This document shows positions 879 through 50,000 of a stretch of 64,000 bases of DNA, in pieces. Made by a program: the position numbers and the translations under genes. The stretch's first letter is position 1; every line of letters begins with the position of its first letter. The notes beneath the pieces are model-generated. The model ran no database searches. It saw nothing but the letters and a program-made list of their open reading frames with translations, and was not told the DNA's origin. Source of the stretch: Eledone cirrhosa (Eukaryota); contig OZ024743.1 in the NCBI GenBank assembly GCA_964016885.1, positions 159,588,001-159,652,000 of the forward strand, written 5' to 3'.

Positions 879-914
879 CTTTTGAAAAGCAGAAGAACTG
901 CGAAACCGGTAAAG
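879..914 (+). ncRNA. Minimal type I hammerhead ribozyme motif, U3-A8 core variant
   Basis: ctt-TTGAAAA-gcag aagaa ctgc-GAAA-ccgg-TA-aag: stem I ctt/aag, 4-bp stem II, palindromic CCGG stem III loop as in Penelope-associated hammerheads; core is UUGANAA instead of CUGANGA. Confidence 0.7.
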
Positions 915-930
915 GAACTAAATAAATATA

Positions 931-1572
931 TCTGTATATATATAAAATTAAGTATGTGTGTGTGTGCGTGCGTGTGTGTATGTGTGTGTGTGCGTGTGTG
1001 TGTGTGTCTGTGTATTACCTATAGGGGCCTACATCTTACGACTGATTTTCATGAAACTTTGCAGGCTCATAGATTAGCCATCGGGTAGTGTTTCTATATA
1101 TCAGCGTATCGTTTTTTTATTCCGGGGTCATTCTGCAGATAAAATTGATAGGGGGGGGGGGGTCAACTTTTTTTAGGTATCGAAAAATAAAATTTTTGGC
1201 TCTAGCTCCCACATTTTGCCAGCGATTTCCTTCAAATTTTACAGTACGCTAGAACTGATCATTTCACGTCTTAATATGGCTTTATATTTTGGATTTTTTG
1301 TTCACGAACGGCGTGGCAGACGCTTAAATATTCGAAAATACCACCTTTTTGCTCAAATTTCCGCCTTTTTGGCTCTAGCTCCCTCATTTTTCAACCAATT
1401 TCGTTCAAATTCGAAACCCGCGTTTCTCAGTGATAGACGTCATCACCAGCCTCCCCCGTATGGCCTGTGTGTGGCCATAGATGTCATCGAGAAGCAGTCG
1501 CTAAGATCAACACCTTTTCATCAAAGCAGATATTATTTTACCTACCCAGGCAACGCTGGGTACTGCTGCGAG
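931..1572 (+). mobile_element. Non-autonomous Helitron-like element
   Basis: Begins A|TCtgtatatatataaaa followed by (GT)n; ends with hairpin acccaggcaacgctgggt then CGAG|T (variant of CTAG|T); same architecture as 63315-63938. Confidence 0.65.
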
Positions 1573-1976
1573 TATTTTTATAAAAAAAGACTCCAGTTGC
1601 ATTTTCGATTTCATCATTTTACCTTATACTTTTAGAGATAAAATTTTGGCCGTTTGGACTGCTGCTATTTCTAGTGGCAGGACATTGACCTGTCCACCCT
1701 GCCGTTTGTCTTTGCACACGGCACCAGACAGAATTATTTCTTTCATCATCCGCTCTCATTTGGGAATGGTTTTGTATGGTGTCAGTTTGTGATTTGAACT
1801 CGGGAATCTTATATTCTCCGAGGGAGAAGAGCTTTCTGAAGATTGGTCCCTTCTCAATGGAAATCCGCTTGGATTTTCCGTTTATTCATGATACCGCGGT
1901 AAAGGCACATATAGTAAGTACAGTGAATTTTTTTTAATTTATTTTAACACTTTTTCTCTATTTGCTAGACTTCGAT

Positions 1977-2120
1977 TATATATATATATATATATATATA
2001 TATATATATATATATATATATATATATATATATATATATATATATATATATATATATATATATATATATATATATATATATATTTATATATATATATACA
2101 TATATATATATGTGTGTGTG
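1977..2120. repeat. (TA)n microsatellite
   Basis: Directly visible. Confidence 0.95.
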
Positions 2121-2169
2121 CGTACGTATGCATGAACTTGCGTGTGTGTACAGAGACGTATACATGTAT

Positions 2170-46060: not shown

Positions 46061-47748
46061 AGTCGTGTGTAGCATGTGTATTTATCTGAAACTAAAACAA
46101 AAATAGACTCCACTCTCATTAGCAACAATCAAGAGATACTCCAAGAACTACCAAAAATAAACTCTAATTTGTTAATACTCGCCAACAAACTTAACTCTAC
46201 AAGTGAAGAAACAATCCCCAAATACACATCCTATGAAATCGACGACAATATCAATAACTTATGTGAAACAATAAAAACACACCTGAATAACAACACAAAT
46301 CATATTCAAGCGAACGAAAAAACACACGACGCTAATAGACTTACAACTTACCAAATAAAACAATAAATTAATACCACAATGGTACACATCGTTTAAAAAC
46401 AGGAAATTCTCCTTTTGGAAGACGATACAAAACAATAACAAAGCGGAGATCTATGAAAAATAGATTAACTCATCCCCATTAATCATCCCCCGCAAACTAC
46501 AAATTAAATCAATCGCAAACGAACCCTAGACCCAAAGACGCCCCAGGGAAAGAATGGCAATTGATAACATGAAAACCGAAATTGAACTCCTTAAATTGAG
46601 AGCCCAAGCAAATGAAGATAGGATCAAATCAATCGACGATGAGATTAATCAAACAATTATGAAGTAAACCAAAGACACCTCCCTAGAAAATATTTCTAAA
46701 TTATGGTTAGAGGACTGTAATAAAGAAGAATTAAAATCCCTTCAACGTTGGGAAATAAACAAAACCCAGTTCTCCAACTATGAAACACTTTTCCAAAAAG
46801 AACACACGTCCAAGAACCCTTCATTAACACCATAATAACAAGAAAACTCAATCAACACACAAACATCACACAACAAACCCACAACCATTACTTCCAACAT
46901 AGACCCAAAATACACAACTACCGCACATGTCACATAGGGCCTCACAACCACACACCATCTACAAGGAAACCCTAATCTACACTCCCCCACTAACCACATC
47001 CTACTACAACAACACCAGCAGGGGACAATACAACCACACGAGACACCCTAACCTCTACAACCACCATAACTACACACCATATAACAGCAACAGCAGGACT
47101 CAATATAACCACATGAGACAACCCTACTACAACTACCACCAAGTCTACACACACTACAACAACAACAGTGCTCAGCACAACCATACGATAGAACCCAACT
47201 TCAACAACCACCACAACTTCACACCCTATAACCACGTCCATCAAATCTACACACCATACAACAACATCAGCAGGGCTCAAAACAGCCACACGATACAACC
47301 TAACTTCAACAACCACTACAGCTACACACCATCAAATAACAACAGCAAGGGCCAATACAACCATAGGAGACATCCAAACTTCAACAGCAACCACAACTTC
47401 CGTAATCAGCATTTTTATAACCCAGCACACAGACACGGGATAACAAGATAACTCAAAACACACAGGAGACACAAAATGTAATAAAAATTGTTAATTTAAC
47501 CTCTAAAGATTTAACAAAAGACCAAATCAACATACTCTCCAAATATCTAAAATTTACACCTAGTCCCCAACAACCAAACTACTACGAAATAAAGGAAGAT
47601 ATTACAGAATTCTGTAGAAAACTAAGACTCAGCGACTAGAAAACTAAAACCAAACCTAAGCAAAAAAGAATGGAATGGTCTTAACAGTCTAAAAAACGAC
47701 AAAACTCTGTCAATTAAAGAGGCAGAACAAGGGAGTGCAGTAGTCCTT

Positions 47749-48879
47749 ATGGGGACAGATTACTACACGACTCTAGTACTCTCAACTCTAAAAAACCAAA
47801 CATATTATGAAAAGACCCAACACTACACACAACAGAAAATAATGAGTAACCTACAATCCCTAACAACCCTTTACAAAGAAGGCCTTACAGACAAGGGATA
47901 CAGCTACATCACCAATTTCAAAAGCAAAACCAGCCTCTTCTACGGTATCCCAAAGACACACAAAAGCGAAGTAATAAGTAGGGCCTGCAATCAAGCCACA
48001 GACATTTACATCAATATAGCCCCTCCTGATGACCTTAAATTAAGACTCATAATAGCAGGTACCACATGTGAAACCCACCGCCAAAGCAACTTCCTAGAAC
48101 CTTTCCTAAAACACATAAAAAGCTTCATAAGGGACGACCTTGTCATGCTCAACCACCTCCCAACAACACTCAATAATGAACATATCCTACTAGTAACCTT
48201 TGATGTCATCAATTTATATTCCAATATCCCACACAACCTAGGTATAGAGGCAATACAATTCTGGATGGAAAATTTCCCTAGTGAACTTCCACAGCGCATC
48301 CCTAAAGAATTTGTGCTGGAGGGACTCGAATTCATCTTGGAAAACAATTTCTTCGAATTCAATGCGAAATACTACAGACAGAAATCTGGGACTGCCATGG
48401 GCACGAAAGTAGCCCCCTCATACGCCAACCTTGTCATAGAATATTTGGAAACCACTCTCTACCGCAAAGTTCTAGACAAATACGGTAACCACTTCTACCA
48501 ACATATAGAAAAGAACTGGAAGAGATATCTGAATGGACTCAACAGTAATTTACAATTCATAATGTATTACAGCCATGAACAACTCCCTTTCCTCGACATC
48601 TTCATCAAGATAACAAACAACATAATAGAAACAGACATATACTACAAACCCAGAGATTCCAAACAATACCTTCCATTCAACTCGGGCCACCCTCGACATA
48701 CCAAAATGACAATTCCTGATAACCTAGCCAGAAGGACCTGCACAATAGTTTCAGATAAATACACATGCTACACACGACTAGTAAAATACACTTATCAGCA
48801 GAAACTACTCACCATCCATAATGAACAATGGATTCCAACGTGCCCTAAAACTCGACATCCAGGAACTCAGACAGCCTAG
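47749..48879 (+). pseudogene. Penelope RT ORF lacking the catalytic DD
   Basis: WKRYL is joined directly to NGLNSNLQF. Confidence 0.85.
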
Positions 48880-48998
48880 ACCCAGGAAAGAACCGCAACA
48901 GAAAAGCTCTACCATACATCTCCACACACAACCCCCTCAACAATGAGGCATTCGACACCATCCTCCAGAACATTCCTTTACTAAAAAGAGACCCAAGA

Positions 48999-49463
48999 AT
49001 GAACAAAATCCTTCAAACACACAACATCATAAAGAGCAAAAGACAACCTAAATCCATAAAAAACATCCTCACACAAGCCAAAATCCAACAAACGCTCACA
49101 ATCAACCATACAGTAACAAAATGCGAAAGAGCTAACTGTGGCATGTGCATAAATCTAATAGGAGGTTCAACATTCCATTTTAAACAAGGACAACATTTCA
49201 CAGTTAAACACAACTTTACACGTGCATCTGAAAACCTAATCTATGTTTTGACCTGCTCAGGTTGTCAAGAGCACTACATAGGACAGACAAAAAACAGCCT
49301 CCGACAACGTATGACCGTCCATAAATCACAAATCAAAATACAGGAATACAGAAAGATTGCGTTTAGTGAACATATCGCCAATTGTGCACCCAACCAACAT
49401 CCAAACTTTAAAATTCTTCCCCATTTACAAATTCATAGACAACGCTACTTTCATCCATCGTAA
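48999..49463 (+). pseudogene. Penelope GIY-YIG endonuclease ORF fragment
   Basis: LIY...C..C...YIGQT...R...H motif. Confidence 0.88.
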
Positions 49464-49963
49464 CAATAAGGAAACGTATTTCATTAACAAATTCCGACCT
49501 CTACTTAATAACTTTGGACTAAACTAGAACTGAAACGAACAATGAACCATTTAAAAAATACCTATGTCACTCTAAAGAGTCCCCTCCCTACACCCTACCT
49601 AATCCTTTTTTCTTAAATAAATTAAATACCATCTGCCATTTCTTTCCCACACTGAATCACCTCCCCCTACATATTAACTCTCTGAAAAGGGAAATCATAT
49701 CAAACCCCAGTCCACCATTTGCCTCCGTCATGACCCAACTAAGCACTCTTGCTATATTAACACATGTTGATCTGCTTATCTTCAAGAACTATGCCTGTAA
49801 ATAACATTATTTTTTCTTTCACATTGCCTTATTTTTCTCCCCACATTACGCCCCTTTTATTCTTTTTTCTTTTCACTTCATACACCTTGTTTGTAAATAA
49901 CATTATTCTTTTTGCATCATTTCTTTATCATGTCCAAAACCACCATTCTACACCAATACATAT

Positions 49964-50000
49964 TATTTGATAATGCATAAAAATGCTGAAACCGGTAAGA
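49964..50000 (+). ncRNA. Minimal hammerhead motif in the Penelope pLTR, U3-A8 variant
   Basis: tat-TTGATAA-t-gcat aaaa atgc-t-GAAA-ccgg-TA-aga. Confidence 0.7.

Follow-up and report, generated by a model that had tools for sequence, protein, structure and literature searches.

In a 64-kb stretch of the 3.0-Gb genome of Eledone cirrhosa (assembly GCA_964016885.1, contig OZ024743.1, positions 159,588,001 to 159,652,000; "the window"), four hammerhead ribozyme motifs carry the core pair U3-A8 where canonical motifs have C3-G8. There are good grounds for taking this as the inherited family core of type I hammerhead folds in two families of Penelope retroelements, here named A (motifs at 45393 and 49964) and B (879), and in a third family, C (11527), that is likely a retrozyme, with the 3-8 pair likely kept for self-cutting. 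The parts of these families present in the window are the following (RT, reverse transcriptase; pLTR, pseudo-long terminal repeat):

1..935 (+): 3' untranslated part and pLTR of a family B Penelope, common to up to 29 of 29 loci
879..914 (+): family B minimal type I hammerhead, U3 (882)-A8 (887), stem II GCAG/CUGC
11175..11750 (+): family C element, flanked by (TA)n tracts; other loci have 322-nt tandem units and inverted copies (L158)
11501..11590 (+): family C type I hammerhead with a long stem I hairpin, core 11528-11565, U3 at 11531
45357..45471 (-): inverted family A pLTR fragment, 115 nt, with a hammerhead at 45393-45429, U3 at 45426
45732..46054 (-): family K pLTR-tail fragment, inserted between the inverted A fragment and the A body; K's own hammerhead is C3-G8
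46718..50210 (+): family A Penelope body broken by stops and frameshifts, with RT (47626-48879), GIY-YIG (48849-49463) and a CX4CXXC linker
49964..50000 (+): family A minimal hammerhead in the 3' pLTR, U3 (49967)-A8, helix III ACCGGU

All four motifs stand where the first-pass annotation of the window had placed them (UUGAAAA at 882 (+); UUGAUAA at 11531 (+), 45426 (-) and 49967 (+)), and each has the paired stem II it had described, here of 4 bp, followed by GAA and a UH site. The descriptor that recovers all four in the real window gave no U3-A8 match in 150 block-wise dinucleotide simulations. An Rfam scan of the window at E<=10 gave 132 matches, none of them to a hammerhead family; since it missed the canonical C3-G8 motifs there as well as the variants, Rfam cannot judge motifs of this kind.

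In families A and B the core is otherwise complete, with a paired 3-8, GAA, A15.1-U16.1 and H17, U3-A8 replacing C3-G8, and it is combined with a 4-bp stem II and a short stem I. The family B motif in the window has a 3-bp stem I, the palindromic helix III ACCGGU and a predicted cut after GUA; remains of the RT and GIY-YIG domains of this copy sit just upstream of the window (via locus L141). Both family A motifs have a U10.1-U11.1 mismatch, with stem II GCAU/AUGC behind the U-U, and the 49964 copy has just 1 bp of stem I left beside the core, 2 bp being usual in its family. Both had been assigned to Penelope pLTR copies, which is right for 49964, in the 3' pLTR; the 45393 copy lies in no more than the inverted fragment, which is 89% identical to 49930-50032 and is separated from the element body by the piece of family K. 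Those database relatives of the family A RT in the window that have names are mostly molluscan. At 11527, the GAA of the GAA(A) box reported earlier is present, but it reads GAAG rather than GAAA (47 of 51 aligned family C segments read GAAA), from a 5-nt deletion in helix III that takes out A15.1. With its core constrained, this copy folds at +1.0 kcal/mol, vs -4.2 kcal/mol for an intact palindromic copy; lacking A15.1, it is likely inactive.

The evidence that carries this reading is that U3-A8 is the consensus of all three families. In loci retrieved by similarity in DNA (for each search, 30 of the roughly 40 listed, those closest to the query), it was found in 31 of 31 family A matches, 33 of 33 family B regex matches and 50 of 51 aligned family C segments, a few of the last from overlapping loci. 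Across C-type subfamilies the two sides of stems I, II and III vary together, with U3-A8 constant in 51 of 51. In DNA contigs of run X1, neither U3 nor A8 had an alternative letter at the 2% level for family B (n=3,324) or at the 5% level for family C (n=2,967), while neighbouring positions vary. A single contig of organism B spans the family C core with both positions unchanged, but its depth of 2.3 keeps it out of the evidence. Pattern searches of the genome agree: a family A pattern with position 8 left free had 511 matches (control 0), with A8 in 99 of the first 100, and YTGANRA-N11-16-GAAACCGGTA, the CCGG-type pattern, had 19,617 (control 21), the first 100 comprising 99 U3-A8 and one U3-G8. 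C3 occurred in 142 of the CCGG-type matches (control 11), and 95 of 100 listed were C3-A8 singles; extrapolation from the other five puts C3-G8 at about 7 of the 19,617. The earlier suggestion of covariation rather than decay is thus borne out, single changes being at background level, and the consensus and the unbiased counts together exclude a situation in which the families are CUGANGA and single changes are as common as the double.

On the genome scale, motifs with G10.1-C11.1 and any base other than A at position 7 (the G10.1 class) numbered 24,748, of which 9,828 were U3-A8 and 13,938 C3-G8 (controls 1,470, 633 and 263, respectively). Subtraction leaves about 408 net single changes (1.8%), vs the roughly 11,200 expected were positions 3 and 8 independent. 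The copies themselves are not independent, so that the family level weighs more than copy counts. Scanning 1.13 Mb of fetched loci for the structure yielded 282 matches, with none in the reversed sequence; of the 23 clusters with at least two members, 8 were mainly U3-A8, 12 C3-G8, 2 C3-G8 with U4C, and one a mixed pair of two families, and in none of the 23 was a single change in the majority. C3-A8 singles were mostly in the A/B cluster, for which C3-bearing loci had been fetched deliberately. The genome pattern search showed no excess of A3-U8 or G3-C8 (1,702 matches vs 2,548 in the control).

The U3-A8 class is also large. A further pattern, for the canonical family D, had 29,393 matches (control 47), with C3-G8 in 98 of 100 listed. 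Including it, the patterns total about 28,600 U3-A8 vs about 42,400 C3-G8 motifs, or roughly 40% of about 71,000, a rough share because the patterns are exact and overlap slightly and families W, M, J and K, which include both kinds of core, are uncounted. As the first-pass annotation had anticipated, searches fixed on CUGANGA would miss this part of the motifs. A family-like CUGAAAA repeat, considered as a possible C3-A8 family, was rejected: it lacks a stem II and represents the family K pLTR tail read on its reverse strand. That strand has a relic-like C3-A8 arrangement with stems I and III, in nine matches (L222:1110 (-), L011, L033, L069 and others), and may be either chance or a relic.

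The window alone shows fewer origins than families. The stems and flanks of the motifs had been described as unrelated, which does not hold for 879 and 49964: these share GCA..UGC, GAAACCGGUA and a AAAUAAAU tail (71% over 65 nt, E 0.015). The open reading frames (ORFs) of families A and B are 67% identical in DNA over 788 nt and their RTs 55% identical in amino acids, and clustering of the structure-scan motifs put the two ribozymes together. By these comparisons A and B are sister Penelope elements with homologous ribozymes, so that in place of the three independent families first proposed, the window shows at most two origins. Family B, like A, has RT and GIY-YIG upstream of the ribozyme in several loci (L142, L143, L145, L146 and L147 support the pLTR placement for A/B). 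Both have a CX4CXXC linker, with GIY-YIG at the C terminus, as in Neptune/Nematis-type elements (definition CX2-5CXXC); the assignment is by linker motif and does not separate Neptune from Nematis.

Family C differs from A and B in all stems, and its long stem I hairpin folds well (z -6.6). Its tandem spacing is 322 nt (L158), or 316 nt in one subfamily, and it forms inverted pairs at (TA)n tracts. No RT could be identified as its parent: the RTs adjacent to C copies are those of K and Hydra-type elements, which have ribozymes of their own, and comparison of the unit with the Penelope 3' ends of 15 loci matched only other C copies. Family C is likely non-autonomous and similar to non-LTR (long terminal repeat) retrozymes.

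Outside the window, U3-A8 is also found in Penelope elements of a different type. Families F, W, I, M, N and O fall into one RT group (support 100/100, in a tree without a named Hydra reference), and have features of the Hydra clade: a CxCX5C linker in F, W, O and N, and a DKT motif in M and N. Two of these families are U3-A8. In F, six loci have the ribozyme 300-380 nt behind the endonuclease; in W, whose copies are 98-100% alike over the 221-nt query, U3-A8 was found in 34 of 34, and the span from ORF to ribozyme of the tandem element aligns between three loci. I, M, N and O are C3-G8, N with an additional U4A; the link from ribozyme to RT is one full locus plus one deleted copy for I, and one locus for O. 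Families A and B cluster with database proteins whose core state is unknown, a long way from the Hydra-type group. A single clade for all seven U3-A8 RT rows is rejected (p-AU, approximately unbiased test, 3.4e-8), and the fewest changes on the tree are three; K carries a long-branch warning in this analysis. Among the Hydra-type families, W comes closest to I (60-62% identity, support 85/88). The RT tree leaves out families C, D and H, which lie at (TA)n tracts next to various RTs; L221 and L236, with few aligned columns, are absent from the first tree, and L232, a distant metagenome locus with a C3-G8 motif, was left off the final trees as a long branch.

The trees support the view that U3-A8 arose at least twice, and three or more origins are possible. 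A stronger version, in which there were three or more fixations (A/B; F and W; C) making up about 40% of some 71,000 ribozymes, while other families fixed U4A or U4C, can be put forward only tentatively and is perhaps somewhat doubtful.

Several further observations concern these families. Relative to I, the family F ribozyme has one extra 5' base and a stem I of 2 bp plus a bulge (L214, L212, L244), and one speculation is that its U3 arose by insertion of 1 nt and not by substitution. Family W is best seen in L283 (C1:259595500-259605400), a tandem Hydra-type Penelope with a 650-aa open frame and a 3-kb 3' untranslated part, for which there are 1,151 genome candidates. Family N ends in a complete type I fold with the fixed U4A core CAGAAGA (L234:1500-3300 (-), L106, L246, L284 and others), stem I being 5 bp, stem II CCC/GGG behind a U-U, and stem III 4 bp; 24 of 26 CAGANGA matches in the fetched loci are family N, and this core is possibly more unusual than U3-A8. 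Family K (L222:5843-9001, L241) is a Penelope with a frame of more than 1,050 aa, a long Asn-rich insert and a C3-G8 ribozyme, its RT 22-26% identical to those of A/B. Two RTs were tried as parents and rejected, that of L222 for family E and that of L230 for family F2, their 3' ends carrying C3-G8 ribozymes of their own (K and M, respectively).

How might such motifs function? In families A and B, read-through transcripts of tandem copies could pair two motifs through the palindromic helix III; the calculated duplex energy of ACCGGU is -8.3 kcal/mol, making self-dimers possible, with -9.8 kcal/mol for F and -9.7 kcal/mol for W. The dimer would cut after GUA and so set the ends of the transposition RNA, which the RT and endonuclease would then reinsert. 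In family C, with its long stem I, CAAUCA loop and longer helix III, 322-nt units may be cut from tandem transcripts and moved in trans. A change from C-G to U-A needs two GC-to-AT transitions; selection for pairing likely fixed it in master elements, after which genomic copies would decay neutrally to give roughly 1% single changes. Cleavage of the U3-A8 family RNAs is predicted here from sequence.

A number of points weigh against this interpretation. Isolated monomers of the A and B motifs fold no better than shuffles (z +0.2 and -0.7), which is expected for dimer-type motifs but lends the reading no support, and stem I of family A is just 2 bp, with a U-U at the base of stem II. Metazoan minimal hammerheads showed low activity, and only as dimers, according to the parts of Cervera and De la Pena (2014; PMC4209133) compared here. 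The copies fetched by similarity are the 40 most query-like, and hence biased toward the query's core; copies are in any case not independent, and the case rests on two or three tree events plus families without RT. As to the number of events, F and W as one clade, with a single Hydra-type origin, is not rejected (p-AU 0.17).

Another possibility, though an unlikely one, is a founder effect: the motifs no longer cut, and U3-A8 hitchhiked in a few master elements under AT-biased mutation. The GC content of the window is 38%, both changes are GC-to-AT transitions, and independent origins are few; the weak in vitro activity of minimal hammerheads (compared parts of PMC4209133) and the spread of Naiad elements without hammerheads (compared parts of 10.1101/2021.04.23.441226) would also fit. 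AT bias alone, however, would yield families with single changes, of which none was seen among the clusters, while the remaining core positions and the paired stems have been kept across diverged subfamilies; nor does the near identity of family W copies, all U3-A8, fit easily with it. A single origin followed by exchange, in which template switching or recombination carried one U3-A8 module among the Penelope lineages and into retrozymes, is quite improbable. The elements do nest in each other at (TA)n tracts, and the ACCGGU helix III is common to A, B and E (to which no RT could be tied), but all three stems of F and C are unlike those of A/B, and the W ribozyme shares stem I (GCC/GGC) and stem II (GUCC/GGAC) not with A/B but with its C3-G8 sister I: that these two agree in stems I and II while differing at positions 3 and 8 speaks against transfer of a single module. 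That the motifs are chance matches or decayed copies of canonical families is scarcely credible, for although the 11527 and 49964 copies carry private damage, U3-A8 is the consensus in all three families, C3-G8 is next to absent from the CCGG-type matches, and shuffles give no such motifs.

The window also contains six motifs of C3-G8 families overlooked in the first-pass annotation, at 10409 (-), 42272 (-), 42873 (+, decayed), 50562 (-), 51112 (+, C3A) and 63163 (+). The features concerned are:

10350..10415 (-): canonical C3-G8 hammerhead with long stem II (M-like family)
42236..42278 (-): canonical C3-G8 hammerhead, with a decayed inverted partner near 42873 (+)
50527..50568 (-): family D hammerhead, canonical C3-G8; the inverted partner at 51106-51148 (+) has C3A
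63157..63200 (+): canonical C3-G8 minimal hammerhead of a family found in three other loci

Family D, an inverted pair at 50480-51250, combines the canonical core with U10.1-U11.1 and elsewhere forms tandems of 420-490 nt. The octamer ATGCAAAT occurs in family D, in family H and in the 42272/42873 unit; it is presumably a motif of promoters of the small nuclear RNA (snRNA) type. Two families have a U4C core (CCGAAGA or CCGAUGA) with stems otherwise intact, represented at 55230-55275 (-) in the window and in L221, L025, L070 and L118. By eye, broken frames at 20178-33028 resemble pieces of a non-LTR (long interspersed nuclear element, LINE) RT and endonuclease, and frames at 57868-61215 resemble a Helitron replication protein and a PIF1-type helicase. 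A repeat of 140-190 nt resembling a short interspersed nuclear element (SINE) has dispersed copies at 14935-15147, 16317-16529, 18629-19033, 24105-24244, 44606-44818 and 45167-45349.

The retention of the 3-8 pair while its letters switch, at family level and on the genome scale, is indirect evidence of selection for the catalytic fold in weak, dimer-type ribozymes. The gain is quantitative, together with sister pairs suited to experiments. Should three or more fixations prove correct, the genome would be a natural laboratory of hammerhead core evolution: the sisters I (C3-G8) and W (U3-A8) could show whether the exchanged pair adjusts the speed of cutting to the transposition cycle, and counts of ribozymes in animal genomes would be too low by a large factor.

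The implied novelty of U3-A8 itself does not stand. Judging from the compared parts of their paper, Cervera and De la Pena (2014; PMC4209133) had already described U3-A8 covariation for the Cercyon Penelope elements (about 1,300 hits in Schistosoma), a variant that their descriptor missed, and in their Fig. S3 S. mansoni(4) UUGAAAA stands next to S. japonicum CUGAAGA, the stems of the two matching. Natural U3-A8 and U10.1-U11.1 variants compatible with activity, and in vitro activity of U3-A8, are likewise stated in the compared text of Perreault (2011; PMC3088659). A literature search, in which few subscription journals were covered, returned no report of cephalopod or octopus hammerheads, of U3-A8 retrozymes or of U4A hammerheads, and for the U3-A8 change itself nothing further than the papers named here. 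What is new here is the share of U3-A8 (roughly 40% of the motifs counted) and its repeated origin within one genome.

On the basis of the same partial texts, the elements described here are like Cercyon (PMC4209133) in their covariation, pLTR location, absence from the results of a standard descriptor, and inverted pairs 100-700 bp apart; their helix III contains a palindromic insert of 4-10 nt, resembling the Drosophila, rotifer and mosquito variants (PMC4209133). Unlike Cercyon, U3-A8 here is found in two distant RT groups plus a retrozyme-like family, and in about 28,600 motifs by exact patterns vs about 1,300 there. Family C resembles non-LTR retrozymes (PMC7229834; Li et al., 2026, 10.64898/2026.07.22.740005) in its tandem units of about 320 nt, type I ribozyme, low GC content and Penelope-like inverted insertions; it differs in its U3-A8 core, unmentioned in the portions compared, and is known here from DNA alone. 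Families F, W, O and N share the CxCX5C linker, and M and N the DKT motif, with the Hydra clade (Craig et al., 2021, 10.1101/2021.04.23.441226), as well as (TA)n insertions and hammerheads; their core states (U3-A8 in F and W, C3-G8 in I, M and O, C3-G8 with U4A in N) go unreported in the compared part of that text. Variants that the compared text of Perreault (2011; PMC3088659) presents as rare, in several examples, are here the family consensus of high-copy retroelements.

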